A stretch of DNA of 35,316 bases from an uncultured virus (IMG/VR IMGVR_UViG_3300037963_002983) (taxonomy: Duplodnaviria; Heunggongvirae; Uroviricota; Caudoviricetes): the IMG/VR virus record IMGVR_UViG_3300037963_002983. One strand, given 5' to 3'. Both the position numbers and the translations under genes were made by a program. Positions 3,613 through 27,100 of this stretch are shown here, piece by piece. Numbering within the stretch: the first letter of the stretch is position 1; every line of letters begins with the position of its first letter. The notes beneath the pieces were generated by a model. The model was not told where the DNA came from. It saw only the letters and a list, made by a program, of their open reading frames with translations, and did not search any database.

Positions 3613-4842
3613 ATGAAAGAAATAAATGAAAAAATGATGAAAGAAATAGAAATAGGAAGTAAGCACATAGGAATTACTGTTGATGAAATGGTAACAAAAT
3701 TCCGTTCCATGTGTGAAGAGAATGGAATAGAGTTAGATAACGATATTGCAGTTTCACTACTTAGAAATTATGTGCGTGGTAATATGCCAACAAAGAAAAC
3801 AAACAACAGTGGTTCTAACAGTTTAGTTAAGAGCGCATTCGGTTTCTTTGTAAGCCTAGAAGCACCAAGAGATATGATGAGTTGGAGTAGAAACAAAGCA
3901 AGAGAAGAATACCTAAGAGATGGTGAAAAAGCATTATCCGATGGCGTTTTTGCAGTTGCTACCGATAACGGAGATGAAACCTATAATCTTGAAAGATACT
4001 ACAAAGGTGAATATCAAGAAACTATGGTAAAGAAACTACCCGATGGTGCGGAAGAATTGGAAGATGGGACTATTATTATTCCATTAGACAACATGCCTAA
4101 TTACACAAGTGGGGCTGAAAATAAAAGATATGGTAAGCCTTTGCCTAAGAATGAATTTAGAAGAAATGGTATTTTCTTCGGTAGCATTGATGGCGGAGAT
4201 ATGAAGTCTTACTACTTCTCTTATAAGAATCAAGGTGGAATAGATTTTGCACCCGAAACTTTTGATTGGGTTCACTTCAAGGCTATTCCTAGTGATGATG
4301 GAACAAACTTGTATGGTATGACTATGGCGACTAAAGATAGTCTAATTAGAAATGTTGATTTAAACCCCGATAATAGCGATTATAGGGATATGAGTTCTTT
4401 TGACTTTTCATCTTGTTTGTATGAAAACTATCCTAAGAATGGAACACCATTGGTAGATTTAGATAGACTACATACTAATTTACAAATGGAACAAACAAAG
4501 GATAGATTTGCTATTGTTGAAGGAACGGTTGTTAATCAAAGAATGACACCGACTGCTAACGGTAACAGAATTTTATCTATTACTGATAAGGCATCCGATA
4601 TGGAATTGACAGAAGATGAAGAAGAGAATCTAGCAACTACTTGTTGGATTCCCGAACACATCAATATTAACTTCGGTATTGGTTCTACAGTATTAGTAGT
4701 TGGAAGAACTTCTCAAAGAATTATTGACGGAGAAGCCGAACCAATCACAATTAATACTAGTGGTTTGTTAGTTCAAGAGGCATTTGGTAATCCGGTTGCC
4801 GAAGAACAGGGCGTAGAGGATGAAGACATTGTTTGGTTTTGA
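3613..4842 (+). CDS. putative single-stranded DNA-binding protein (RPA-like OB folds)
   Basis: C-terminal OB-like strand pattern (IVEGTVV...RILSITD...CWIP...GSTVLVVGRT), acidic-aromatic tail EDEDIVWF, strong AAGGAGG RBS, replisome context. Confidence 0.6.
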   Translation: MKEINEKMMKEIEIGSKHIGITVDEMVTKFRSMCEENGIELDNDIAVSLLRNYVRGNMPTKKTNNSGSNSLVKSAFGFFVSLEAPRDMMSWSRNKAREEYLRDGEKALSDGVFAVATDNGDETYNLERYYKGEYQETMVKKLPDGAEELEDGTIIIPLDNMPNYTSGAENKRYGKPLPKNEFRRNGIFFGSIDGGDMKSYYFSYKNQGGIDFAPETFDWVHFKAIPSDDGTNLYGMTMATKDSLIRNVDLNPDNSDYRDMSSFDFSSCLYENYPKNGTPLVDLDRLHTNLQMEQTKDRFAIVEGTVVNQRMTPTANGNRILSITDKASDMELTEDEEENLATTCWIPEHININFGIGSTVLVVGRTSQRIIDGEAEPITINTSGLLVQEAFGNPVAEEQGVEDEDIVWF

Positions 4843-4852
4843 TTAGATTCCA

Positions 4853-4939
4853 AAGGGGTTTGTTGTTTCCCCTAAGCATGTCCAAGTGTAAGTGTGAACT
4901 TGAGGAAGAAATTGACGCTCGGATAGGTGCGAAGCCTAT
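4853..4939 (+). promoter_or_regulatory. structured intergenic element (2-3 hairpins)
   Basis: AGGGG-tttgttgttt-CCCCT, CAAGT..ACTTG and ATAGG-tgcgaag-CCTAT inverted repeats lie in the only sizeable gap of the + arm. Confidence 0.45.
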
Positions 4940-4955
4940 TTTTAGAGGAATAAAA

Positions 4956-5225
4956 ATGTATAGAAAAGGAATTATAGAAGAGAGATTCCTTCTAAAAAAT
5001 GAAAGTTATATTATTGATTTAAATAGTGTAGACTTTATTACTTGGAAGGAAAATGAAAACAAAAAAGATAGTTATTGGATTAAACTTCATGTTGGAACTA
5101 AGGAGACAAGATATGTTTGTGAAGGCAAAAATGAATTGTGTCGTATATTAAACGCATGGGGATTATTGAAAGAAACAGAATTATTATTAGATAAAAATGA
5201 GATAGGTGAAAATTATGAGTTTTAG
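4956..5225 (+). CDS. hypothetical protein (89 aa)
   Basis: ATG follows AGAGGA. Beta-rich with a C-terminal helix. The longer ORF-track start at 4833 is unlikely. Confidence 0.65.
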   Translation: MYRKGIIEERFLLKNESYIIDLNSVDFITWKENENKKDSYWIKLHVGTKETRYVCEGKNELCRILNAWGLLKETELLLDKNEIGENYEF

Positions 5226-5976
5226 AAAAGAGAAAATAAATTTTAGTGAATTAATGAAAATGAAAAGAGAGAATAGAAAACCTAGAATGGTATTAGGTAT
5301 TTGGGGAGAACCAAAGACGGGTAAAACCGGACTTGCATTAGACTTCCCCGATAGAAAGATATTTGTTTTAGATTGGGATAGAGGCGTTGAATCAACTTGG
5401 TTTCAACACCACGATGCAACAGATAGAATAGAAGTATTTTGTCCTATTGTAATGAATAAAGATAACATTATTGATATTAACGAAAGTGAATCACGCTCGT
5501 TAGAATTTATCAATCATGCTAAACAATCAATAGATGCAGGAGATAAACCTATCTTTGTTATTGATGGAGTAGATACTTGGCTTTCTTCATGTATGTTGAA
5601 AGTTAATCCTAATCCTAGAGTGGTAACAAAGATTATGCCGTTCCAATATGGTAACAGAAACAAGGCATTCTACTATTTATTAGACACTATATACAACTTA
5701 GAATGTGATGTAATATTTATTACGCATGATACTGAAAAGTATGTCGATAATGTGCCTGTTGGAGTTCAGCCAATGTGGAAAGATTGGGGAGGTAAACTTG
5801 AACAAGAGATTTACTGTTCTAAAAAGAAAGTAAAGGGAGAACTACATTTCTTTGCTGAACTATTAGGTAGTAGAACTAATGGTAAACTTGTAGGTTCTAA
5901 GTGGACTACAAGACAAGGAACTCCACCTAACATTACATGGAATGGACTAAAGGAATTAAGAGAGGGGGCAATATGA
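5215..5976 (+). CDS. P-loop ATPase, AAA_24/Sak4/RadA-like recombination protein
   Basis: Walker A GEPKTGKT, VLDWDRG, Walker B FVIDGVD, VIFITH strand; RecA-fold order typical of phage Sak4-type proteins. Confidence 0.75.
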   Translation: MSFRKEKINFSELMKMKRENRKPRMVLGIWGEPKTGKTGLALDFPDRKIFVLDWDRGVESTWFQHHDATDRIEVFCPIVMNKDNIIDINESESRSLEFINHAKQSIDAGDKPIFVIDGVDTWLSSCMLKVNPNPRVVTKIMPFQYGNRNKAFYYLLDTIYNLECDVIFITHDTEKYVDNVPVGVQPMWKDWGGKLEQEIYCSKKKVKGELHFFAELLGSRTNGKLVGSKWTTRQGTPPNITWNGLKELREGAI

Positions 5977-6746
5977 AATTTACAGTAGATGCAAAAGAAT
6001 TAGTAAAGGCATTAACAGATATACAATTGAAAGGAAAATACTTCAATGGTGCAAGTCTAACTAATAATACTTTAATAGAGTATTTTTACGCTAAATTGCA
6101 CAATAATACATTGAGTTTATGGAATTGTGATTCTATTAATTCATTAATAGTTAGAGTCAATATAACTGTTGAAGGTGATGAAGACGGAACGGTTGTTGGT
6201 GAAACCGGAGAGTTGTTGAAATATCTAAAGAAGTTCAGTGGTGATGTAGTAGTAAACTGTGGTGATATTATTACTATGACAAATAACAATAGTAAACTTT
6301 CACAACCTACTATTGCGAATCATCCTAATATGGACACATTGAATCGTATGGGTCAGCATGTCCTAAATACACACTTTGAAGAAAACCTAGAAACTTTGTT
6401 TAACTTTAACAAAGAAAAATATGAAGGTGCATTTCAATTAGACTCAAATACATTTAGTGAAACTATGAAACTTTGTGAGTTGATTGGTAGTGGTGTTTAT
6501 CACCTAAACTATGAACATGATAAGAATAAGTTATCACTGTCTAGTGCTACTAACAACTCAAATAAGTTTGAAACTTCTATTGAGTTAGAAGGCAATATTG
6601 GAGAATCAGCAACACTAGATTTTTCTAGCCCACTACATGTATTGTTTGACAATGAAATGTTGAACTTTTATGTCAAAGATGATTTCCCGATGTTGATTAT
6701 ATCGGAGAATAAACTTTTGATTAAAGCACCACACTTAGCAAATTGA
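5973..6746 (+). CDS. pcn: DNA sliding clamp (PCNA-like)
   Basis: About 257 aa with two clamp-like repeats (MKFTVDAKELVKAL...; FQLDSNTFSETMK...) ending in DFPMLI...LIKAP. Lies directly upstream of PolB, and RFC genes and PIP boxes are present in the window. Confidence 0.7.
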   Translation: MKFTVDAKELVKALTDIQLKGKYFNGASLTNNTLIEYFYAKLHNNTLSLWNCDSINSLIVRVNITVEGDEDGTVVGETGELLKYLKKFSGDVVVNCGDIITMTNNNSKLSQPTIANHPNMDTLNRMGQHVLNTHFEENLETLFNFNKEKYEGAFQLDSNTFSETMKLCELIGSGVYHLNYEHDKNKLSLSSATNNSNKFETSIELEGNIGESATLDFSSPLHVLFDNEMLNFYVKDDFPMLIISENKLLIKAPHLAN

Positions 6747-6755
6747 GGAATATAA

Positions 6756-8420
6756 ATGATAATAAGTAATAAAAATGGAAATACAATATACAAATCTTGG
6801 AGAGAAAACGGAAAAAGAAAAAGCGAAGAGTTAGAGTTTCGACCCTACTTCTATGTTTTAGAAGATGAGGTAGAAAGAAATTACTATCCTTTGAACAAAT
6901 ATACCAATGGTAGATTTGAATATGAAGATGGAGATTGGAAAAGCCTAGAAGGTGAACCTTTGAAGAGAGTCTATGTTGAAAAATCATATGACATAAATAG
7001 TGCTAGGCAACTCTTTACTAAAACATATGAGGCTGATGTGCCTTATACATTTAGATATGCAGTTGATGAAGTTAATGAGATGCCCGAATACAATATGCGT
7101 AAGTGGTATTGGGATATGGAATGGCAACAAGGCGGAGAATATGATGGTTGCATTACTACTATTGTAGTGTATGACAACTACAATAAGAAATACACTCAGT
7201 TTACTTGGTTTCCCGAAGGCCATCCCTTTTATGTCTCATCCCAAAGAATAGATTATAACGAAGAAACAAAACATAATACTTATGTTTGTCGTGATGAAAA
7301 ATTTATGCTTGAAGTCTTTATGGGATTTATGATTGCTAAAGACCCCGATATGTTAATTGCATGGTTTGGCCTTAAGTTCGACTTACCTAAGTTATTAGAT
7401 AGAGCATGTGCTTTAGGTTTGAATCCTTTAATCATGTCGCCTTATCATAAGATAGATGGAGTTAAACAACTTAAGAAAGGTTGTAGTTTTAAGAGACAAG
7501 ACGGTTATTCGCCAATTGAACAACCTATTGGTGGAAGACTTACTCTTAACTTAGACTTAGCATTTGAAAGACAGTGGAATGATTCACAAAGAGGAACATT
7601 ACCTTCACTAAGTCTTGATTATGTTTCTAAGATATTGTTCGATGAAGGAAAGGTAATGGAAACTAAGTTTGAAGACCCTAACGAATTTTATCGTAGAGCA
7701 TGGCTAGAAGATACAGAAGCATACTTACATTATGCCTTAGTAGATGTAGAACTTTTAGTTAGAATAGATGAATCAAACTATTGTAGCGAAGCAATAATAT
7801 CATTACAACGATTACTAAAAGCACCTTTCAAGGCTTGCTTCTATGCTTCACATATGGGTTCTATTTACTTTATGAGAAATGCTTGGTGGAAAGCACCAAC
7901 AGGCATCAAAAGTGCCGATAGAAGAGAATATCAAGGGGCTATGATTTACGACCCGCTTAGTGAGAATACTAATGGCTTACACCTTAATGTAGCGGCGTTT
8001 GACTTTGCGGGGCTATATCCTTCAATGATGGTTGCTAGAAACATATCTTGGGAAACTAAGAGCCAAACCCCTACTGAATTTGGGGTTAATATCTTAACGC
8101 CAAGAGATTTCAGCGAAGTGGAAGGAGAGCAAATGCACTATTATAGAACTGATGAGTTAGGATTATTGCCTAAAGCAGTTCTTGAGTTGAAGGAGTTAAG
8201 AAACGATTACAAGAAAAGAATGAAGAACTCCGAAGGTGATGAATATGTTAAGTGGTATAATAATCAAATGGCGGTCAAGAGATTAATGGCTTCTTTTTAT
8301 GGTGTATTAGCCTTTCAAGGCTTTGGTTGGGCTGATGTAGATTTAGCCGCTAGTATTACTGCTAGTGCTAGAGAGGCTATTAGGTTGGCCGCATTTAAGG
8401 CGAAGGAGTTGGAAGTATGA
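6756..8420 (+). CDS. polB: family B DNA polymerase, N-terminal part (3'-5' exonuclease, motifs A and B)
   Basis: FRPYFY, YEADV, ExoI WDMEW, ExoII FDLPKL, ExoIII YALVD, motif A FDFAGLYPS, motif B KRLMASFYG, ITASAREAI. The ORF ends before motif C. Confidence 0.95.
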   Translation: MIISNKNGNTIYKSWRENGKRKSEELEFRPYFYVLEDEVERNYYPLNKYTNGRFEYEDGDWKSLEGEPLKRVYVEKSYDINSARQLFTKTYEADVPYTFRYAVDEVNEMPEYNMRKWYWDMEWQQGGEYDGCITTIVVYDNYNKKYTQFTWFPEGHPFYVSSQRIDYNEETKHNTYVCRDEKFMLEVFMGFMIAKDPDMLIAWFGLKFDLPKLLDRACALGLNPLIMSPYHKIDGVKQLKKGCSFKRQDGYSPIEQPIGGRLTLNLDLAFERQWNDSQRGTLPSLSLDYVSKILFDEGKVMETKFEDPNEFYRRAWLEDTEAYLHYALVDVELLVRIDESNYCSEAIISLQRLLKAPFKACFYASHMGSIYFMRNAWWKAPTGIKSADRREYQGAMIYDPLSENTNGLHLNVAAFDFAGLYPSMMVARNISWETKSQTPTEFGVNILTPRDFSEVEGEQMHYYRTDELGLLPKAVLELKELRNDYKKRMKNSEGDEYVKWYNNQMAVKRLMASFYGVLAFQGFGWADVDLAASITASAREAIRLAAFKAKELEV

Positions 8421-8704
8421 GATGTGGAAAAATAATATATCCTAATGCTACGATTGCTCATCAAGAGATGCTTAAAGAAAAGAAAAATGGCATTAAACTT
8501 AATTATTATTATTGTGAATTTTGCGAGGGCTACCATTTAACAAAAATGAATTTACAGGCGCAACAGGCGTTTAAAAAGAGTATATTAAACGCCCATGAAC
8601 TTAAAAAGAAAAAACTTAAAGAAATTAAAATTGGGCCATTTGAGCCATTATATAAGGCTTGGAAGGATATTGAGGAATTTAAGGAGAAGATGAAAAATGA
8701 ATAG
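8417..8704 (+). CDS. small Zn-finger protein (C..K..Y...A...YxCxxCxxxH type)
   Basis: MRCGKIIY...YYYCEFCEGYHLT; ATGA-coupled to polB-N. Confidence 0.65.
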   Translation: MRCGKIIYPNATIAHQEMLKEKKNGIKLNYYYCEFCEGYHLTKMNLQAQQAFKKSILNAHELKKKKLKEIKIGPFEPLYKAWKDIEEFKEKMKNE

Positions 8705-8822
8705 AATAAAATGTATGAAACCGTTGGCGCATAATCCTCAATTTGAGGGTAAGTTTCATTGTAAAAGATGTGCAGAAGAAATAAAAATGAGGAATAAAAA
8801 TGAGTATAACAACAGAATGTAG
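8697..8822 (+). CDS. 41-aa Cys/His-containing peptide (not in ORF track)
   Basis: MNRIKCMKPLAHNPQFEGKFHCKRCAEEIK...; preceded by AAGGAG and fills the gap between its neighbours. Confidence 0.5.
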   Translation: MNRIKCMKPLAHNPQFEGKFHCKRCAEEIKMRNKNEYNNRM

Positions 8823-9246
8823 AGAATGTAGGCAGGTCTTTAGAAAGAGGTCTTTGAAATCAACAGAAAAAATATGCGAGGCTTGTAGAGGTAGCGGAGG
8901 AAGAAACAGATACAAGGTTATGGCTAATAAAACTGTTAATGCAATAGCAATAGTAGATAATATGGAAAAGCAAATAGAAGATTTAAAATCATCTATTGAT
9001 GTATTACATAGCACTATCGGAGTTGAAGTTCAGCACCAAATAACTAATGACATAAAACCTATTGTAGAAAAAATAGTAGATGAAAAAGTTAATGAACTAA
9101 AAGGTGTTATTATCTCTTCTATGACTAAATCACAAAAAGCACAAGAAGAAATTAAAGAACTTACTAAAACAATAAACTTACAAAAGGGTTCTATTACAAG
9201 AATTAGGAATAAGATAAAAGCGTTTGAAAAGAGGTTGGGAATATGA
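8800..9246 (+). CDS. Zn-ribbon plus coiled-coil protein
   Basis: CRECR...CEAC followed by heptad-rich helices. Confidence 0.75.
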   Translation: MSITTECRECRQVFRKRSLKSTEKICEACRGSGGRNRYKVMANKTVNAIAIVDNMEKQIEDLKSSIDVLHSTIGVEVQHQITNDIKPIVEKIVDEKVNELKGVIISSMTKSQKAQEEIKELTKTINLQKGSITRIRNKIKAFEKRLGI

Positions 9247-9380
9247 AGTGTCCTAGATGTGGAGGTTCTCTTGCTTATGTTGAGTTAAAACCTAAGATAA
9301 ACTATTCCTATGTTCAGCGAATAAAGAGAAGGGCTAAGTTAATATGTAATTCTTGTGAATATGAGGAGGTATTCAATTGA
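9243..9380 (+). CDS. 45-aa Zn-ribbon protein (not in ORF track)
   Basis: MKCPRCGGSL...LICNSCEYEEVFN; coupled at both ends (ATGA, TTGA). Confidence 0.7.
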   Translation: MKCPRCGGSLAYVELKPKINYSYVQRIKRRAKLICNSCEYEEVFN

Positions 9381-9583
9381 ATAAACATTTTGAAAGATGG
9401 GTCTATGAGACAGTTGAAGAAATGGATGAAGTGTTTACCGGACATGAAATTATTGCTAGAATTGTAGAAAAGAAAGGAACTAGTATGTATGTTGGTAATG
9501 CCCAACAAGTAGGTTACTTACTAAATAAATTAGATAATATAGAAAGAATCGGAGAAGGAGAATATAGGAGGTTAGATGTATGA
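9377..9583 (+). CDS. small winged-helix-like protein
   Basis: FTGHEIIARI...NAQQVGYLL...IERIGEGEYRR; TTG start follows GGAGGT. Confidence 0.55.
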   Translation: MNKHFERWVYETVEEMDEVFTGHEIIARIVEKKGTSMYVGNAQQVGYLLNKLDNIERIGEGEYRRLDV

Positions 9584-9774
9584 AATACACAAAATACATA
9601 GTGGCTAAAATAGAATACGATACAGAAGAAACTTGGAAAGAGACTGAAAAAGACATTAATGATATAATAGAAATGCTAACAAATTTAAAGCGTAGAGCAA
9701 CTATTATAGAAATTGATGGTGTAGATACAAAACAAGGAGTAGATAGTCATGTCAATGATGGACAAGACAAATGA
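9580..9774 (+). CDS. hypothetical protein (64 aa)
   Basis: ATGA-coupled, with GGAGGT RBS. Confidence 0.6.
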   Translation: MKYTKYIVAKIEYDTEETWKETEKDINDIIEMLTNLKRRATIIEIDGVDTKQGVDSHVNDGQDK

Positions 9775-9883
9775 ACTCCTTGAGGAATTACTCGCTATGA
9801 TTGCTAAGAGCAATAAAATATTAATGATGGTAAATATTGTAAATATAGCGACCATTATAACAATAATAACGGTGATATTATGA
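9749..9883 (+). CDS. 44-aa membrane peptide (not in ORF track)
   Basis: MSMMDKTNELLEELLAMIAKSNKILMMVNIVNIATIITIITVIL has a C-terminal hydrophobic helix. AAGGAG RBS; the stop overlaps the next ATG. Confidence 0.6.
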   Translation: MSMMDKTNELLEELLAMIAKSNKILMMVNIVNIATIITIITVIL

Positions 9884-10077
9884 ATGAAAAAGAAATGAAA
9901 TACAAAATAGAAAGATTAGAAGAAAGAATTGAAGGCTTAGAAAGAGAGGTAGAAGAACTATACTTAGAGATAGAACTAACAAAGGTTTCAAGTAGCAACA
10001 TAAGAGACATTATGGAAGAAGTCGCTAAGTTAGCAAATCAACCTGTTGGAATGATGTTTAATTATAGCAGTGTGTGA
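9880..10077 (+). CDS. small coiled-coil protein
   Basis: KIERLEERIEGLEREVEEL heptads; GGTGA RBS. Confidence 0.65.
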   Translation: MNEKEMKYKIERLEERIEGLEREVEELYLEIELTKVSSSNIRDIMEEVAKLANQPVGMMFNYSSV

Positions 10078-10081
10078 TATT

Positions 10082-11002
10082 ATGAAAGTAGTTTACGGAC
10101 ATACAGATTCGATTTATGTTCAAATTGATTCTGTTGAAAAGGCACAAGACGCTATTAAAGAAATAGAGTCTAGTGTTAGAGAACACTTTCCTAATGTTAT
10201 GGGCTTAGAACAACACCCCGTAGTGCTAGAATTTGAAAAATATTATTCAGCATTAGGTGTTGGAACAACTAAGAATAGAAATGCAGGTATGATAACTTGG
10301 AAAGATGGAGAATGGTTAGATGAACCGGAGTTCATTATGACGGGTTTTACTGCTAAAAGAGTTAGTGAAACTAAACTTGCTAAAGAAGTTCAAACTGATG
10401 TATTGACAATGTGGGTGAATGAAAAACCTATGTTAGAAATTAACAAGTATTTACACAATAAATACATGTCAGTGCTAAATGGAGAAGTTGAACTACAGGA
10501 CATTATTAAGAGAAGTAGGCTTAAAGAAAACAGACTAAAGGTTAGGTGTGGTAAAACTACAGAACACAGGTGGACTGGTAAAAAAAGTGGTTGTAATAAG
10601 AGATATACCTTACACGAATGTTTACCTCTAAGATGGTGTGAAAAGTGCGGTGAAGATGTAAAGAACTTCAAAACCTTAGATGGTAAGAAACCAACGATAG
10701 GTTCGGGTATAGCGGGTGTATTACATGCTAAACAAAACGATATTACATTTGACGACTCTTACTTATACCTTAAAGTAGCAAAGTCCGGTGAAGTATTTAC
10801 ACACCCACTAACTAAAGAAGTGAAGACTGTTGAATATGTAGCAGGTTCTCGGTATGTTGATTTTGATAAGTATAAACCCGATTATCAACATTATGCCGAG
10901 CAAGTAATAAAGAAGGCCGAACCAATTTATAAGGCTATGAATTGGGATTTGTCTAATATCAAATCGGGTAAAATACAAACAAATTTGGAGGAATGGTTTT
11001 GA
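10082..11002 (+). CDS. polB: family B DNA polymerase, C-terminal part (motif C, thumb, PIP box)
   Basis: Begins MKVVYGHTDSIYV (motif C). Contains LEFEK, KNRNAG, GFTAKR..E, DYQHYAEQV and terminal QTNLEEWF. Confidence 0.93.
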   Translation: MKVVYGHTDSIYVQIDSVEKAQDAIKEIESSVREHFPNVMGLEQHPVVLEFEKYYSALGVGTTKNRNAGMITWKDGEWLDEPEFIMTGFTAKRVSETKLAKEVQTDVLTMWVNEKPMLEINKYLHNKYMSVLNGEVELQDIIKRSRLKENRLKVRCGKTTEHRWTGKKSGCNKRYTLHECLPLRWCEKCGEDVKNFKTLDGKKPTIGSGIAGVLHAKQNDITFDDSYLYLKVAKSGEVFTHPLTKEVKTVEYVAGSRYVDFDKYKPDYQHYAEQVIKKAEPIYKAMNWDLSNIKSGKIQTNLEEWF

Positions 11003-11904
11003 ATAACAATGAAAAATATGAAGCGATAATTAAATCAATGGATGAATATACTTATGATTGGAAGCCGGAAAATTACGACGACCCATCTTTGCCTATATTG
11101 AAAATAACTAAATCTTCTTTGGGGGCTTTCGATTGGTGTCCCAAGAAATACAACTTTAGTTATGTGCAAAGATTACCACAAGACCAAACAGAGGCTATGC
11201 GTAAAGGAACTATATTACATGTTCATAGAGAGAACTTCTTTAATGACTTTGATGTTAAGAAAGCAGAAAATATGTCGGCTGATGAAATACATGATTATTG
11301 CGCCGGACTTACACCAATAGATGAGTATTTTGATTTGTCTATGACTGTTGCTGCTTTTGAGGCTCAAAGGTTTATTGATGCTAGAGCAGAAAATAAAATT
11401 GATGAATATTTACCTGTTTGTAATGAAGGATTGTTCGATGCTGAAATAACAATAGGGGCTAATACTAATCCTAAGTTTCCACTTAGGAGAGATTACAAGA
11501 TACATATTCAAGGCATTATTGATAGAGTTTTTCAAGAAAACGGGGGCTATGTTCCTTTTGAATATAAGACCGGAGCATGGAAAGATTACAAGGCTACTTC
11601 TATGAGAAAAGAAATGGCCTTTTATCAATTACTTATTGAGAATGCGGAAGATGAAGTTCTAATTAAGAATGGATTAGAACCTAATGTTCCTGTGACTCAT
11701 TGGGGTTGGTATTATCCGGCTTCTAATTATGTATTTGCTGAAAATGCAAAGGCTAGAAATATGAAGTCTGTTATGAAGAATATTGCTAAGTTGATTTGGC
11801 ACTATGAACAAGATACATTTCCAACTAAGTTTTTCTTTAAGACATGTTCTCATTGTAGTTATTTTAATATTTGTGACGCTGCCGAAGAAGATTCATGGGT
11901 GTGA
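10993..11904 (+). CDS. Cas4/AddB-like PD-(D/E)xK exonuclease with Fe-S cysteines
   Basis: WCPKKY, GTILH, GIIDRV, EYKTG, and C-terminal CSHCSYFNIC (1+3 Cys arrangement). Confidence 0.88.
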   Translation: MVLNNNEKYEAIIKSMDEYTYDWKPENYDDPSLPILKITKSSLGAFDWCPKKYNFSYVQRLPQDQTEAMRKGTILHVHRENFFNDFDVKKAENMSADEIHDYCAGLTPIDEYFDLSMTVAAFEAQRFIDARAENKIDEYLPVCNEGLFDAEITIGANTNPKFPLRRDYKIHIQGIIDRVFQENGGYVPFEYKTGAWKDYKATSMRKEMAFYQLLIENAEDEVLIKNGLEPNVPVTHWGWYYPASNYVFAENAKARNMKSVMKNIAKLIWHYEQDTFPTKFFFKTCSHCSYFNICDAAEEDSWV

Positions 11905-17233: not shown

Positions 17234-17382
17234 TGTCTACGGCAGAATGGTTCGGCTTATTCATCTTTATGATTATCTTGACGCTATTGTTTTTCGCCGC
17301 CTTTGGTGGAACAAACATTACAGAACAAAGCGTCGATGATTATATCAAAAGATTGATGGGTCAAACGGAAGAGAAGAAATGA
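17233..17382 (+). CDS. 49-aa single-TM membrane protein (not in ORF track)
   Basis: MSTAEWFGLFIFMIILTLLFFAAFGG...; GGAGGTTGA RBS, TAATG coupling. Confidence 0.65.
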   Translation: MSTAEWFGLFIFMIILTLLFFAAFGGTNITEQSVDDYIKRLMGQTEEKK

Positions 17383-17522
17383 GTTTAAAACAGAAGTGTG
17401 CTTATTGTGGAGATAAGACATTAGCAAAGAGAATCTTAGGATTCTATGTTGGCTCTAGCGAGCAAGTAAAACTTTGGGAATGTCGGTCTTGTAAGGGTAT
17501 ATGGTCGAAAGACACTAAATAA
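17379..17522 (+). CDS. 47-aa Zn-ribbon protein (not in ORF track)
   Basis: MSLKQKCAYCGD...LWECRSCKGIWS; ATGA-coupled; last gene before the terminator. Confidence 0.65.
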   Translation: MSLKQKCAYCGDKTLAKRILGFYVGSSEQVKLWECRSCKGIWSKDTK

Positions 17523-17524
17523 TT

Positions 17525-17566
17525 AGGAGAGAGAGTAGTTTAGGCTACTCTCTTTCCTTTTTTTTT
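17525..17566 (+). terminator. hairpin plus T-tract terminator at the convergence of the two arms
   Basis: AGGAGAGAGAGTAGT/GCTACTCTCTTTCCT stem (about 15 bp including G-U pairs) running into a T9 tract, with further T- and A-runs to about 17612. Confidence 0.8.
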
Positions 17567-17601
17567 GGCATTTTTTTTCAAATTTTTAATTTATAAAAAA
17601 T

Positions 17602-17757
17602 TCATTTTTTTTCTACATAAGTGCAAACTTCATCTTCCGTTGAATTTAGAATAATAAATTTTAACTGTTTATCTTCATCGTAAAATAACCAAGTAATTGT
17701 GAATCCCCATATAATTCCAATGATTAAAAGTGAAAAAAGGTAAGTTAAAAACGACAT
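17602..17757 (-). CDS. 51-aa membrane protein (not in ORF track)
   Basis: MSFLTYLFSLLIIGIIWGFTITWLFYDEDK...; N-terminal TM helix; last gene of the tail arm. Confidence 0.55.
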   Translation of the reverse strand: MSFLTYLFSLLIIGIIWGFTITWLFYDEDKQLKFIILNSTEDEVCTYVEKK

Positions 17758-17763
17758 GCTGAA

Positions 17764-18321
17764 CTATTGCGGTGGTAAACTTCCCCAAAAACCCATTTCG
17801 GTACAATAACTAGAATATTTATTTCTCATTAGGGTTTCATATTCACTACATGATAGAGAATTAGCACTAGTCCAAGTATCGAACCATGCTACATCCCATT
17901 GAGAACCCGAAGGTGGATTCCAAGTTTCTATATCAGCCTGTATTAAGTTAAATCTATTGTCTTTAGCACAATGAGGCCAAACTAAATTTATTACATCTTG
18001 TGAATTTTCTATGATTGTAACTGATGTAACATTTGGATTTGTTAATAATGCAACATTTACCATGCCTATACCTAGTCCTCCGATTAAAACATGACCTGTT
18101 GCATTATCCCATAACCACTGATGTTCTCTATATTCCGCTTCCGAGTCTTGCATAATTGGCATATCACAAGCACTATGTAATAATACACAATAATTTAAGT
18201 TAGATTCTTGTTTCATTTCTAAATACAATTGCCACATATTGTCAGTAGTTGTATTAGTATAGTGGGCAACTTCAAAATCTCCCGATACTCCCTGCGGTAT
18301 ATTAACTGTTATTCTTGTCAT
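17764..18321 (-). CDS. class I SAM-dependent transferase, spermidine-synthase-like fold
   Basis: VLIGGLGIG (motif I), VTIIE, IQADI, WDVAWFDTW. Confidence 0.8.
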   Translation of the reverse strand: MTRITVNIPQGVSGDFEVAHYTNTTTDNMWQLYLEMKQESNLNYCVLLHSACDMPIMQDSEAEYREHQWLWDNATGHVLIGGLGIGMVNVALLTNPNVTSVTIIENSQDVINLVWPHCAKDNRFNLIQADIETWNPPSGSQWDVAWFDTWTSANSLSCSEYETLMRNKYSSYCTEMGFWGSLPPQ

Positions 18322-20790: not shown

Positions 20791-21129
20791 CTACTCTACC
20801 TCCAAAAATATAAAAAATTCTGCCGTTTCATTAGAAGCAAATGGCCCAACTCCTTCAAAGTTTTCTCTAAGCAACATATTACTAGAAGAATCAAAAACAC
20901 CAACTTCTCTAATAACTTGACCCGTTAATGCTCCTCCTCCTGCGACTGAAACCTTTACTTGAACTACATTTTCATCCGATTTAATGGCTGAAACAGAAGC
21001 CGATGATAAAACATTGTCCAAGTCTGTTTGAGAACCATAAGTAGAATTTCCTCCTAGCCCCACCTTTGCATTATTTATTAAAGACACTACTTGGTCTGCC
21101 AGTAAAGATTGTAATTTATCGCTTATCAA
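20791..21129 (-). CDS. small baseplate/tail-fibre attachment protein
   Basis: IREVGVFD motif typical of tail-fibre N-terminal/collar domains; position between hub and fibre. Confidence 0.55.
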   Translation of the reverse strand: MISDKLQSLLADQVVSLINNAKVGLGGNSTYGSQTDLDNVLSSASVSAIKSDENVVQVKVSVAGGGALTGQVIREVGVFDSSSNMLLRENFEGVGPFASNETAEFFIFLEVE

Positions 21130-24100
21130 AAGTCTTCCTCCTCTAATGTGGTGAATATAGTTGTTCCTATATTAAGTGGAGAGGTGCTTGTATTTAGGGT
21201 TGTTGAAGCAGTATTCAAAGTAAAAGAACCCGCAGTCACCGACTTTTTGCGAATCAGCATTCTAATTGGTTTTATTTTGATTTTATCTAAAAAACTAAAT
21301 TGCGTTGAGTTTAAATCAACTAAATCTTCATTGAGCCTATTGTTGGTTTTCCTATTCGCTATGCTTAGTTCGGCAAACCTATCTTCTAATCCTTTGATGT
21401 ATTTACCTAACTCTAATTCCATCATGCCCGAAAGCGAGTGTTGTATATCCAATACTAAAAATTCACTTCGGGGTATATTTTCTTCTAGAATCTCAACAGT
21501 TATTATATCACCTGCTCTTAGTTGTGACATGTTTTTATGACCTACTGTTAGATTTAGATTGAAGTTATCTTCATTGTGTAGTTTCAAAAGTTCGTTTGCT
21601 CTTTTATCTACTTCGGACTGTGTTATCAATTCTTCTTCAAAGACTTGTAATGATTTGATTCCATCTTTCTTAATACTCTTCATTTCCTTTCTAATTGCTT
21701 TATGGTTTCTTCCAAAGACGGTTATATCATTAAACTTATCAAAAGAACTTTTAGTTTTCTTGTAGGTAAATATCTCATTATCTGTTGATTGTGTAGTTAA
21801 GAATAGTTTAGATTGGAAGGAACTATCATCGTTTTTTATAGAAAAAGAACTACCGTCTTCTATTAATTTCTTATTCTTTTTATTCATTAAGAAAGTGATT
21901 GCTGAATACAAATCTACTCCCGTAAACTTAGGTGAAACAATAAGAGGGTAGGTTTCGTTCTTATTAATAGTAAATGTAATTCCATTTTCTTCTAATAGGT
22001 CATTAATTAGTAAATCACTATCAGTCCCTATATTAACAACAGAACCTATCAATGCTCTTTTAGCATTTGATACATTTTCAGGCACACTTACAGTTATTGC
22101 TTCCGATACTGAAACAACTCCCAATAGTTCTTTTTGGTCTTTTAAGCGCAAATAGTATTCGGGTATTGTAGTTGATGTTTCCGGTTGTATAAATTCTACT
22201 TCTGTATAATTTTGATTGTCACCATCACTAAATAACATCTTAGTAGAGCCTTCTTTAAGTATGTTATCCCTTAAATTAGTAGGGTCTGTCACTATTAAGT
22301 CATTACCTGTGTTTTGGCTATCAGCATCTACAATAACATACATCGAAAGAACTCCTTCATTATTGCTTTCAAAAGGTCTAGAACCCAACCCGTCTTTTAT
22401 TTGATAAGCATTAATTTCATCATAATTTGCTTCTTCATATGGTTTCTTTGTATATTTAGAAGATAATTCATTTAGTTTAATGTTTTTAGGACTAAAAGAA
22501 TTAAAACAAGTATGGTTAGGTTGCATTATCTTGTAGTATTGAAATCGTGAAGCGTGGTTCATTCTATGGAAGCATCCTTTTCCACTATCTGTACTATCGG
22601 GAATATCGGATATTTTTATTGGGTCGGGTAAAGTTCCGCTAAGTGTAATAATGTGTTTTCTAGAATGGTCGGTTGTATCTATTTCATGGGATAGAATGTA
22701 TAGTATGTGTCTAGGAGTCGTAGCATCATTACTAAATCTCCTACTATGGCTGTTTTCATATACTCCATGACTACCCGATAGATTTTGATTAGTGGGAGTA
22801 TAAACATATGATAAGCCTTGAAGATTTGTAGTATATCGTACGCTCCCATCATCTCTAATGTATTGTCCTGCTTCGGACACTAAATAACAACCTGTTAAAT
22901 CTACATTACTTAACCACATAGGATTATGACTCCCATACATAGTATTTGGGTCGCCCGAAGCATTAACATTCATAGACTTTAAATCAGCATCGGTTAGCCA
23001 AAAAGTATGTATGTCTGTTCCATTACTACCTTTCTTAGTGCCTATAAAATTCCTACTTACGGCAATAGGGGCTGATGAACTTGTACTTGCTATTGCGTTT
23101 TTATCCATATGCAGTCTGTTAAAATTAACTGCATGACATTCATATGACCTAATACAAGTTCCTTCCGGCACTTTATCAGTAGCATAATCATCTATTCCTG
23201 TTCTAATATATGCTTGTGTAGGGATGTGGTCTAAATTAGGACTTGCAGTTTCAGCAGCCGTTTTAGCAAGGCCAACTCCATCAATGACAAATATTGAACC
23301 AACAGTTGCTCTAGCCGGATAATCCCCCGTATGAGTAAATGAAACTGCGTCTATTTGATAACCTATATCTAATTTAAGTATGGGCTTAAGTCCAAACATA
23401 ACACCGTCTGCGTCATTTGCATAAGTGACACTATTTCTACCTGTTATATCTTCTGTTGCCGAGCCATTTTCTGCTTTATTATTAGCAAACCCCCCGTAGG
23501 CTATTGTTCCATTTGAGCCTGAAAGTATGGCTTCATTCATACTAATGCCAACTCTAGATTGTAAGTAAGATGTTTGTTCTAAATGAGCCACTTTAGATAC
23601 TCCGGTTATTCTAGTTCCTACCATACCTGCTACTGCTTTTGCGCCTTCTCCTCCTTTTATGGTAAAGTTGTTAAAAAATATAGGCTTAAAATTTTGTAAT
23701 ATTTGCCCAAATAATGAATGTCTAATTCTATGCTCGCTTGTGACCGCAGCCCCGCTATGGTCTATTCCTACTACTTGTCTTTTAACATAAGCGTAAGGTT
23801 CTGTACCGTCTCCCGACTCGGCGGATATGTTTCTAGATGCCATATATTCCATAAATAGAGGGAATGGAGCATTAGTTCCATATTCTCCTCTAGTGCTAAC
23901 ATCACTATTAGCCGAATCGTTAGCAATCATAAATATATTTGGCCTATATCCAAAGTTAATAGGTAGCCACAAATTAACATCTGTTTCTCCATTTCCTATC
24001 CCAAATGCTGAACTTTCAGCAGATTGTGTCATAAAAGGACTAAATGTTCTTTTTTTACCATGTATTAATTCGCCTACTTCCGTATGATAATCAATATTAG

Positions 24101-27100
24101 TATGGCTAGCATTATCTCCTCCAAAACCTGCATCATCATCTCCTCTAAGTGAGTTTACATGATTAGTATATTCGGCTGCGCTAGAAGATTCACCATCATT
24201 GTCTTTTTCTGCAATACCTCTCATAACTGCACTTTTTAGTAGATGAATGCTAAAATCAATATTTCTAAAATCCCCAATTTCTCCCATTCCTTGTAGATAA
24301 GAATATCCGGTAGCATTACTTGAACTAGCAATATTTTGTGTTTCTACTGGTATGTAATATAATGGATATTGCCTAGATTCAGTAGGAACGCTACCGCTTC
24401 TATTAACTTGATAGTCAAAATAATCCACGCTAACTCCACTAGCATTAACTGTTGTTTTAACGGGTGCTGATGTTAATACAATAGTATTAGTTCCAATGGA
24501 TGAAACTACTCCTATATATCTTCCTTCCTTATCGCATATAATATCACCGGCAGTTCCTCCCGACCAATTTCCACTTAGGTTAAGAGTGTTTGTTGATATA
24601 CTATTGATGTGAAGCCCTATATCTCCTGAACCGCTTTCTACAACCCTTTTCATGTGAGTAAATGGATAGATAGTTTGTGGGATTGTTATATTTTTAGAAG
24701 GAGGATTTTCGGGGTCTATTTGGTTAAAACAAAAATCATAAACAACTTCTGTAAGTCTCATAATGCTAAATCTTCTTAGGTTTCTAATTTCTTTACCTGT
24801 CACGGAAGTAATTATAGAAGAAGAGTATTGATTGTCCAGTCTTGTTATAGAACTAGATTCCCCAATAAAACCAAGTGCATCTTTTGGTTCTCTATAATCA
24901 CTAGTAGTTGTGTCTTTTAAAAACATAATACTGTATTTGGTTAAGTCTCTATCCTTTCCTGCATACATTAGGCTATCTTTTCTTGTTGAGGAATATGGCA
25001 ATAAATCACTATTTGAGAATAAAAACATTCTAGCCACTTTAGGGTCTATGTGTCCAAATCTATCTTTAACTAAAAAAGGCGTATGTAGTTTAGTCGAACT
25101 TACTGTTTGAGTTTCTGTTACGGGTGTTGGTGGTAATAAAACAATAGGGTAAGAACCGGAATGAAAGCCATCCATGTCATAGGTATATTCATTAGAACTT
25201 TCTATTGGGTGAGTGCTATGTTTTTCTAAAGTAGTCATGTCAAAAAACTTACTTCCTGTACTTGGCAATAAGCCTCTAGATTCGGGGATTCTCTTATAAT
25301 CAAATTGGAAAAATTTTGTTGTCACTCCACTAGCACTAGCAGTAGCATTGTTTGTTAATATTACTTCATGGGTTTCAGTACTTCCCGAAGAAACTCCCAC
25401 TAGGGATTCTACAAAGGTGTTAGCAGGAACTCCACTAGCCACTATTTTTTGTCCAACTCTAGGAAAAGAAAGTGCTTCTATCCCTCCATAAGAACTTGAT
25501 TTTAAATTATGTTCTATGAAAGGTGAACCATCAAAAGTTTCTATTTGGCTAAACCCTACAAAAGAAAGCCCCATAATATCTGTGCCTATAATATTAGTTT
25601 GTTCTATTCCATCAATATAATGACCCGCATTAAACCTGTATGAACTAGCGTAGTAAGGTATTTTGCTTTTTGTTTCTGTATAATATTGTTCAGTTGAGCC
25701 TAAAATCTTAGGAAGGATTGTATTTATATTCCCTTTTTCTATATTTAATAGTCTATATAGGGGTGTTCCAAAAACTTCTTGAGAAGACTTAGGCATTTCA
25801 TCTGCTTGTGTTGTAGAACCGTCATAATAGTGCGCCCTTCTAGATACATTAGAACCACCTTGATAGTGAAGATGGAAGGGTTGTGAGGTCACTATTGGAT
25901 AATTTAACAATGATGTTTTATTATAAGTATTTCCGGTTTGTAGTTTAGGATGAATGAGGCCAATTGTTTTAGCACCATGTAAGTGCGCTCCATTTAATAA
26001 ACTTAATTCATGCGTTAATTTAGAACTTTCTTTTGTTTCTTTTGTTGCTTTAGATAATATAGAAACATCTTCCTTTGCATGTCCATTCAACTTATCAATT
26101 TGCATACCTGCCTTAAATTTAAAAAGAATAGAAGAAGTTTGACTACTAGTAGCACTTGCACTAATGGTTATTTTAGCAGTGTCTACTATTTCAGTAATGG
26201 TTGTCCCGCTTGTTATCCCTGTTCCCGAAAGTTCCATCCCCACAAATAGATTATCAGTCGAAGGAGTTTCTAAAATAGTGCTTCCCGAAACACAAACACA
26301 ATCTAAAGTAAATAAGCCCACTCTTCTATCTAAGTAAATTTGAGTGTTAGTTGATTTAACTACTTGAACTACATTTGCTAAAAATTTACCATTAATGTAA
26401 ATAGGTTTATTGTGTAGGTTTCTATTTCCTCTAAGTTGATTCATACTTGATAAAGCAGTATCAGCATCTACCTCTATATATCTTTGAACAGAAGTAGCAT
26501 CCGCAACTATTCTTCCTAGATTAGTTCCCGAATAACTAGTATCATTAGTATTGGCATAATTTATATCTACTCTTCCTAAAGTCAATGGCATGTAAGGGGC
26601 TATTACTATATCAGTTCCGTTGTCTTTAGAGGTAGTTGAAATAACTTCAAAATCCATCAAAGTATTAACTGTATCAAAGGTAGAACTCTCTAATGTGCTT
26701 TGAAAGTGAGGGTCACTCTTCATTCTTTTTACTTCGTTTATATTATAGCCCAAAGCATTTTCATTAGTGCTATGGCTAGTTCCTACTAAGTCTGTTGTCT
26801 CCGCACCCGTAGAATCTATTTGTGTTCCCGATTTAAAGAATAGCCCTTTGCTAGAAGCACCACTTAAACTAGTAGAAGACTCAATATAAGGATTAGTGGC
26901 AAGTGCTTTATTGAATACAAAGTTATGATTTGCTTCTTTATAGCCTGTTAAAGTAGTTCCTTCTGCTCTAGGAAAATCAACTAGGGTAAAACTAGTTCCA
27001 GTTGTTCCTGAAGATATTTCTCCCACATAACTCATCATTCCTGTGTCGTATTTTATGTGTATTTTATCTCCTGTTGCTAAAGTTATGCTTGTTGAAGCAG

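Follow-up and report, generated by a model that had tools for sequence, protein, structure and literature searches.

A family B DNA polymerase encoded in two parts around an array of small genes in a putative magrovirus-type archaeal virus

The polymerase halves and the break between them

The uncultured virus record IMGVR_UViG_3300037963_002983 (IMG/VR), a stretch of 35,316 nucleotides (nt) that is referred to here at its full length as the window, carries a family B DNA polymerase (PolB) in two open reading frames (ORFs) on the + strand. The first, PolB-N (6756..8420, 554 amino acids [aa]), comprises the N-terminal and 3'-5' exonuclease domains, palm motif A and fingers motif B; the second, PolB-C (10082..11002, 306 aa), comprises palm motif C (YGHTDS), the thumb and a Cys4 zinc-ribbon-like insertion. 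In the ORF list PolB-N reads ...ITASAREAIRLAAFKAKELEV up to its stop and PolB-C begins with MKVVYGHTDSIYV from 10082, the other in-frame start being a GTG at 10070. These ORFs and their ends are as given in an earlier note on this DNA, which had described a two-piece PolB broken immediately before motif C. The stop-to-start interval of 1661 nt contains eight chained ORFs, also on the + strand.

Both ORFs belong to family B by profile, since all scores lay above the cut-offs. PF00136 matched PolB-N over profile positions 38-193 of 453 (66.5 bits, cut-off 23) and PolB-C over the complementary positions 222-368 of 453 (38.3 bits, cut-off 23), and the exonuclease domain PF03104 was found in PolB-N with 30 bits against a cut-off of 23. 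In phrog_262 (DNA polymerase) PolB-N covered positions 16-560 and PolB-C positions 574-715 of 856, and in alignments with solved archaeal PolBs the match of PolB-N ran to about residue 529 of 775. Unsplit relatives were sought among 1.84 billion representative proteins, and those found included P0122 (780 aa, 52% identical) and P0123 (815 aa, 44%; BLASTP). Residues 8-552 of PolB-N corresponded to residues 2-557 of P0123, and residue 2 of PolB-C to residue 560; the junction in P0123 reads ..KAQEL-GY-EVIYGHTDS, and the alignment to P0122 behaved alike. The TGA stop of PolB-N lies two residues beyond the last position that was aligned to the unsplit relatives, EV takes the place of the GY of P0123 at the break, and one start Met is added to PolB-C. 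Because the alignments to P0123 and P0122 were continuous across both halves, the break is clean and nothing was lost, as had been claimed before. Comparison with the same two proteins revealed no docking tail on either half.

Family B polymerases are recognized by the exonuclease motifs Exo I-III and the polymerase motifs A (DxxSLYPS), B (KxxxNSxYG) and C (YGDTDS). In the window the break falls after motif B, between the last palm helix and the strand of motif C. Motif A (FDFAGLYPS, D416 invariant) is consequently on PolB-N and motif C (YGHTDS, D9 invariant) on PolB-C, so that the earlier statement that the two motifs reside on different polypeptides proved correct. An alignment of 35 sequences showed that D120, E122, D209, Y326, D330, D416..Y421 and K508..Y515/G516 of PolB-N were invariant, as were Y5, G6, H7, T8, D9 and S10 of PolB-C. 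The sequence YGHTDS, in which His replaces the first Asp of motif C, was invariant in the split clade. Among 80 motif matches of full-length representatives of at least 650 aa, 15 read HTDS, the nearest unsplit relatives included; the other forms were DTDS (61), DTDA (2), DTDG (1) and NTDS (1). A tie between this His and the split was rejected, since unsplit relatives also read HTDS, and on these sequences the His is a trait of the lineage and not a consequence of the split. The Cys4 insertion lies in the thumb at about residues 150-203 of PolB-C (10529-10690); C156, C171 and C189 were invariant and C186 was kept in at least 90% of the 35 sequences. The insertion was missing from P0122 and P0123, where it corresponded to a 42-residue alignment gap.

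Spread of the split, selection and predicted assembly

Patterns of PolB-N matched 560 viral-contig stretches, and the best 80 of these 560 were taken as PolB-N-seeded loci. Both halves were present at the identical junction in 63 of the 80, separated by 508-2392 nt; in the other 17 the contig stopped at most 1802 nt past PolB-N. The junction consensus was ..EAIRLAAFKAKE[LM]xx followed by the stop on one side, and M[KE]VVYGHTDSIY on the other. Another 79 loci, all new, were obtained with a diverged F0 protein as the seed, F0 being one of the small genes between the halves (see below); both halves were within reach in 68 of them, always with the identical junction. The total was 132 loci with both halves, the window included, of which 104 were distinct by sequence, and all share the break. 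Gap length over the 132 loci had a median of 1134 nt and extremes of about 468 and 2557 nt, and identity across the set fell to 57% for PolB-N and 47% for PolB-C. The best 120 PolB-N homologues were mostly 529-577 aa long, with one fragment of 426 aa, and some were located on contigs of up to 104 kb. The shortest gap of all (469 nt) occurred in L142, and was made up of a 46-aa ORF of zinc-ribbon type, F0, and a 53-aa ORF whose N-terminus is hydrophobic; the PolB-N of this locus (4116-5861) is diverged, 581 aa long and has a CxxC...CxxC insertion of its own just ahead of motif A.

Contigs of runs from three other studies bridged both junctions. Record 4 of X10 matched 8348-8420 and resumed at 8703, and records of X7, X10 and X14 crossed 10082. 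Misassembly, which the earlier note had raised as a reason to abandon its reading, is excluded by these bridging contigs and by the occurrence of the same junction in many loci (63 of the 80 PolB-N-seeded loci).

The median pairwise ratio of nonsynonymous to synonymous substitution (dN/dS) was 0.16 for PolB-N and 0.15 for PolB-C, although these values are rough, given that dS for the halves was 1.3-1.6 and near saturation. Relaxed selection, which the note had named together with a failure of the halves to associate as a further such reason, was not seen. PolB-C began with ATG in 71 and with GTG in 1 of 72 unique start contexts, at a position where unsplit relatives have Tyr. These contexts were scored against a Shine-Dalgarno-like (SD-like) consensus; a match of at least 4 nt at -17..-3 was present in 64 of the 72, compared with 454 of 2000 random positions. 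In the window the start region (10074..10086, + strand) consists of GTGAT (SD-like), 3 nt and the ATG. In many loci there was an in-frame stop just 5' of the PolB-C Met. The conserved start codon, the SD-like motif and the upstream in-frame stops together argue that PolB-C is translated separately.

A model of the complex between PolB-N and PolB-C scored 0.79, and the best of three controls scored 0.02. Of 157 solved complexes, 116 attained that mark, as did 2 of 215 mismatched pairs; the model was built from the alignments of this analysis and these calibration counts hold only roughly. Runs agreed in at least 98% of contacts, with a partner pLDDT (predicted local distance difference test) of at least 84, and the modelled contacts joined PolB-N 408-415, the strand of motif A, to PolB-C 11-14 and 54-59.

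The genes between the halves

The eight gap genes, all on the + strand, are chained by five ATGA-type overlaps and three longer overlaps, with a 4-nt spacer ahead of PolB-C, and an SD-like motif precedes each of them. The array begins with F9 (8417..8704, 95 aa, with a CxxC pair), the ATG of which overlaps the PolB-N stop (ATGA) and which belongs to the variable cargo. This is followed by F4 (8697..8822, 41 aa, Cys-rich), F6 (8800..9246, 148 aa, an N-terminal Cys4 cluster and then a long helical part) and F5 (9243..9380, 45 aa, zinc-ribbon-like, with matches to PF08274 and PF12760 below the cut-offs). Closer to PolB-C are F3 (9377..9583, 68 aa, predicted winged-helix), F1 (9580..9774, 64 aa), F0 (9749..9883, 44 aa, an acidic amphipathic N-terminal part and a C-terminal hydrophobic helix, tail-anchor-like) and F2 (9880..10077, 65 aa, coiled-coil-like), the stop of which is 4 nt 5' of the PolB-C ATG. 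The Pfam and PHROGs scan of the gap covered six of the eight ORFs (starting at 8417, 8800, 9243, 9377, 9580 and 9880). The start regions of F2 (9872-9884) and PolB-C (10074-10086) are identical over 13 nt, GTGATATTATGAA; either a common context for ribosome binding or an old recombination joint may account for this repeat.

The + strand gap ORFs of 64 PolB-N-seeded loci clustered into 54 families. A conserved core adjoined PolB-C: F0 was present in 63 of the 64 loci, F1 in 62, F2 in 59 and F3 in 46, and among the 104 distinct loci F1 occurred in 80, F2 in 84 and F3 in 66. In the F0-seeded set, F0 was located between the halves in all 68 loci that showed both. F0 proteins are about 43 aa long, and their last 21 residues have a mean hydropathy of 2.51. 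Members were 75-98% identical to the window copy, with one outlier at 59%, compared with PolB-N identities down to 68%; by these identities F0 is the most conserved element of the gap, above PolB-N itself. Its dN/dS was 0.13. A profile search with F0 returned 206 proteins at E up to 0.001, and the 120 of these that were listed were 41-108 aa long and had no Pfam family.

For F1, dN/dS was 0.25 and D14, T18, T22, N35, K37 and R38 were invariant; the model was a single helix (pLDDT 75), and the protein atlas returned only unnamed viral clusters and no named relative. F2 (dN/dS 0.55) gave weak coiled-coil-type matches, all below cut-off. The AlphaFold model of F3 had a pLDDT of 93.1 and the order H-H-H-strand-strand, and the dN/dS of this family was 0.57. 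Its Foldseek list consisted mostly of winged-helix DNA-binding domains, of which the best had an E value of 0.011 and none reached 0.001; F3 is a predicted winged-helix protein that possibly binds DNA, the fold matches being weak but consistent with one another.

Profiles of F0-F6 and F9 had no match within 8 kb of unsplit polB at 27 loci. Those of F0 and F1 likewise matched nothing in G002 or G003, two unsplit genomes that are complete, or in the 71% complete G004, and the split genome G005 contained exactly one F0 and one F1, both in the gap. A search of the whole records for ribonucleotide reductase families gave weak matches in unsplit genomes and none in G005; this result was not used. 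In another locus (L147), an F0-like tail was observed on a 146-aa ORF next to an ERCC4 nuclease gene.

Turnover of gap genes was mostly found right behind the PolB-N stop, with some between F1 and F0 and some between F2 and PolB-C. The families found there in the window were present in smaller proportions of the 104 distinct loci (F9 in 4, F4 in 42, F6 in 15 and F5 in 24); dN/dS was 0.35 for F4 and 0.22 for F6, and F9 and F6 had no Pfam family. The X10 contig had F9 exchanged for 270 other letters (joint 8420/8703), and in contigs of other runs the first gap gene was swapped or missing, with joints at exactly 8420/8421 and at 8692-8740. Among scanned representatives, HNH endonucleases were identified in the gaps of L072, L181, L173 and L155 above cut-off and in L145 below it, MUG113/T5orf172 (GIY-YIG-like) proteins in L067 and L158, and a CoiA-like protein (CoiA_N) in L042. 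The nuclease gene started at most 4 nt from the end of PolB-N in seven of the eight. Judging membership through these representatives, HNH, MUG113/T5orf172 or CoiA_N families occurred in 13 of the 104 distinct loci. The F20 family (252 aa) had appeared HNH-like by eye, and was set aside since Pfam gave no match. The gap of L129 contained a gene for an N6/N4 DNA methyltransferase (5042-5815; PF01555, E 6.8e-54). The placement of the nuclease genes matches the pattern of free-standing homing endonucleases next to highly conserved essential genes that is described for T4-like phages in PMC2988022. By this analogy, cleavage and homing would take place at the gap.

Beyond the halves, a sliding-clamp-like gene (5937..6746, + strand) lies directly 5' of PolB-N; it matched phrog_947 (DNA polymerase processivity factor) weakly, with an E value of 2e-4, and the Pfam scan of this ORF gave no match. 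A gene for a Cas4-like PD-(D/E)XK nuclease (10993..11904, + strand; PF12705 E 5e-15, PF01930 E 1.9e-6) overlaps the end of PolB-C by 10 nt. The GC skew switches sign at about 17300-17800, where the genes turn from the + to the - strand at the border of the replication and structural blocks. Within the block of tail genes, an ORF of 2764 aa at 21126-29420 (- strand) had no Pfam family at E up to 0.001.

Lineage, alternatives and interpretation

The + strand of the window carries RFC-like, Sak4-like ATPase, clamp-like, PolB, Cas4-like and ERCC4 genes, and the - strand carries tail genes. Its best matches in the phage database were haloviruses, at about 25% identity, and the stretch occurs in marine metagenomes, with no RNA run among the data sets listed as containing it. 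The relative G005, at 94,947 bp and 100% complete (CheckV), has a gene for a Cpn60-family chaperonin. Magroviruses are described as marine, tailed viruses of about 90-100 kb with replicative and structural blocks, whose nearest cultured relatives are haloviruses (PMC5434244). In that paper, seven group B magroviruses with a split DNA polymerase gene were reported (Philosof et al. 2017, Curr Biol; PMC5434244). The split, according to the authors, falls within the catalytic domain, and its position is 'similar, but not identical' both to archaeal intein sites and to that of the split in Methanobacterium. They called it unique among archaeal viruses and took it to support the monophyly of the group, which bears the label 'Magrovirus B1 (split polB)' in the tree. 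The gene numbers in the legend of Figure S3 imply that 0-5 called genes lie between the halves. Magrovirus B1 and the window share the virus type, marine, tailed and archaeal, and a family B polymerase gene that is broken inside its catalytic domain; the text and legends of PMC5434244 give no essential difference between them. The 7-residue offset of the window's break from the intein site fits 'similar, but not identical'. The window most probably derives from a tailed archaeal virus of magrovirus type, in the lineage that was published as 'B1, split polB'. The statement in the earlier note that split PolBs had been seen in some magroviruses was correct, and the split itself is already known, in print, for this group of viruses.

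Taken as a whole, it is very probable that PolB-N and PolB-C are two separately translated parts of one family B polymerase in a magrovirus B1-type virus. As to function, purifying selection on both halves, the conserved PolB-C start with its SD-like motif, and the complex model with its controls make a non-covalent two-subunit enzyme the best-supported reading, as the earlier note had suggested.

It is scarcely credible that the halves are rejoined into a single-chain PolB, whether through removal of an intron (self-splicing or of the archaeal bulge-helix-bulge kind), through a split intein or through ribosome bypass. Interrupted PolB genes are healed in this manner among relatives, and the annotation of Aeromonas phage 25 gives its gene 43B a group I intron. 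Of eight relatives scanned at about 30% identity, five carried an intein with LAGLIDADG domains at YG(D/H)^TDS, with Ser at position 1 and an end in HN followed by Thr; this site is 7 residues downstream of the window's break. Against this, no match to intein or Hint families (PF14890 included) was found by Pfam in either half or in the six gap ORFs scanned, and the termini at the break, ...KELEV before the stop and MKVVYGH, are without Ser or Cys at position 1 and without an HN-Thr end, which agrees with the earlier claim that no intein is present. That PolB-C has motif C whole, and that the break is offset by 7 residues from the intein site, likewise argues against faulty intein excision as the origin of the split here. 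No intron family was found in Rfam at E up to 10 on either strand of 8000-10500, where the sole match was to a nematode small nucleolar RNA model (25 bits, gathering score 48). The junction flanks paired no better than shuffles (cofold -36.5 vs -32.8 +/- 3.1 kcal/mol, with mostly intramolecular pairs), and a bulge-helix-bulge pairing of the two junctions was rejected, the cofold being near shuffles and no inverted repeat connecting them. Moreover, the gap of 468 to 2557 nt is filled with protein-coding genes under purifying selection, and the PolB-N stop and the PolB-C ATG with its SD-like motif are both conserved. The length of the gap far exceeds any known ribosome bypass.

That the halves are no longer a polymerase, being either a decaying gene or proteins with separate jobs (for example, PolB-N acting as an exonuclease alone) while another polymerase replicates the genome, is very improbable. 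The His in place of the first Asp of motif C would be consistent with this, and archaeal hosts have polymerases of their own. However, HTDS is found in unsplit relatives too, dN/dS was about 0.15 on both halves in a clade in which PolB-N identity falls to 57%, and the catalytic residues checked in the exonuclease and in motifs A, B and C (second Asp) were invariant. Both halves were present in all 132 loci where the contig extended far enough, and the model puts them together as one PolB fold. A third alternative, by which F0, F1 and F2 are needed partners, as an assembly factor or membrane tether, and the functional unit has more than two chains, would fit the near-constant position of F0 between the halves (63 of 64 PolB-N-seeded and 68 of 68 F0-seeded loci with both halves), its conservation beyond that of the polymerase, and the absence of F0 and F1 from complete unsplit genomes. 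It is nevertheless very improbable, because L078 is split without F0 and F1, the F1-F0-F2 cassette of L148 sits behind a DnaB-like helicase gene, and the two halves alone yield a confident complex model.

Several of these observations also weigh against the two-subunit reading or its extension to the gap. Besides the His of motif C, the roughness of the dN/dS values and the loose calibration of the complex score, that score may be no more than an echo of single-chain PolB structures, already solved, which the model remembers. A single contig of X7 and a single one of X14 linked 8383 to 10082, directly or through other sequence; the shorter side of this join was 29 letters in X7 and 27 in X14. 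A direct join of 8383 to 10082 would be out of frame, and these contigs most likely stem from relatives whose gap is a different one, or may come from relatives where it is very short. The locus L078 lacks F0 and F1 despite its split, and in L148 (3272-5488) F1-F0-F2 follows the helicase gene at the contig end, with NAD-dependent ligase genes upstream and no PolB-N within 4.9 kb upstream of the cassette, which may be mobile in its own right. The case for the cassette as the cause of the split is one of co-occurrence only, and no endonuclease gene was found in the window's own gap by Pfam and PHROGs among the six ORFs scanned.

For a non-covalent two-piece PolB there is precedent in phage 25, where gp43A and gp43B are reported to co-purify and to be polymerase-active (Petrov, Ratnayaka and Karam 2010, cited in PMC2988022). 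As in the window, the PolB of Aeromonas phages 25 and 44RR comes from two cistrons, each with its own polypeptide. In the annotation of phage 25 a homing endonuclease gene stands between 43A and 43B; the window's gap is without such a gene, as are all but about one in eight of the gaps of its distinct relatives. The break of phage 25 precedes motif B (exon 1 of 43B retains KILINSLYG), whereas that of the window follows motif B and precedes motif C, and the gap of the window's clade differs from that of phage 25 in that it contains between 3 and 10 small genes, some of which form a conserved core. In phage Aeh1, nrdA-a/mobE/nrdA-b are described as 'genes in pieces', produced by a free-standing homing endonuclease, in which NrdA-a and NrdA-b have added tails (PMC3045599); the halves in the window have none. 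When PolB-C was compared with the phage collection by tblastn, only seven halovirus records were matched and no T4-like phage.

In Methanobacteriales the PolB halves are far apart in the genome and both are needed for activity. This PolB3 split is a two-gene arrangement broken in the catalytic region, with no intein (Kelman et al. 1999, cited in PMC4104785 and PMC5434244), and Makarova et al. (PMC4104785) proposed faulty intein excision as its origin. It concerns a cellular gene, whereas the window's is viral, and the positions are similar but not identical according to PMC5434244. The polymerase of Nanoarchaeum equitans is interrupted at motif C by an intein or split intein (cited in PMC4104785), and the N-extein of the split intein of PolB16 ends ...SGDTD (PMC10189870). 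Both are interrupted within the same few palm residues as the window's polymerase, but are healed by protein splicing and have Hint blocks, whereas the window has none and its break is 7 residues further upstream.

If the two-subunit reading holds, PolB-N and PolB-C would assemble non-covalently, and the motif C hairpin of PolB-C would pack on the motif A strand of PolB-N, thereby completing the palm sheet and the metal site. The interval would read throughout as one polycistronic string, its eight small genes chained by overlapping stops and starts, with PolB-C probably made by coupled re-initiation. The split may have arisen once, in the ancestor of the clade, together with a small-gene cassette of F0 and usually F1 and F2, and would have been fixed since; healing the gene would take a near-exact deletion. 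Free-standing homing-type endonuclease genes, along with other small cargo, would land at the site just behind the PolB-N stop, and they would probably spread by cutting the highly conserved polB flanks in genomes that lack them.

The view in the earlier note that the split point is a hotspot for gene insertion holds with a refinement, in that it applies mainly to one side. On the PolB-N side it is borne out by cargo turnover and endonuclease genes; on the PolB-C side it is not, as the F1-F0-F2 core there is conserved and is not free cargo. The comparison of gap content among relatives that the note had proposed gave the same picture, of variable cargo plus a conserved core in gaps of 468 to 2557 nt. 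In conservation F0 surpasses the polymerase, and it is near-universal in split genomes and absent from the two complete unsplit ones searched. On these grounds F0, with F1 and F2, could form the domesticated core of whatever element split polB, or else work alongside the two-piece enzyme as its companion, though this idea is doubtful. A companion might tether the enzyme to the membrane or, by translational coupling, control how much PolB-C is made.

Being in print for this group of viruses, the split adds nothing new by itself. Beyond the text and legends of PMC5434244, the present analysis gives the residue-level position of the break, the absence of tails, the F1-F0-F2 core and the endonuclease cargo, some of which the figures of that paper may show; the anatomy of the gap, above all that F0 travels with the split, may be new. 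These viruses amount to a large natural experiment, in which hundreds of genomes have their replicative polymerase in two pieces without a splicing device or docking tails. This bears on how far the PolB palm tolerates breaks of its backbone at the edge of a catalytic motif, and on the use of essential genes as safe harbours by mobile endonuclease genes, in archaeal viruses as in T4-like phages. The near-universal microprotein gene F0, nested between the halves, is the one lead worth following.

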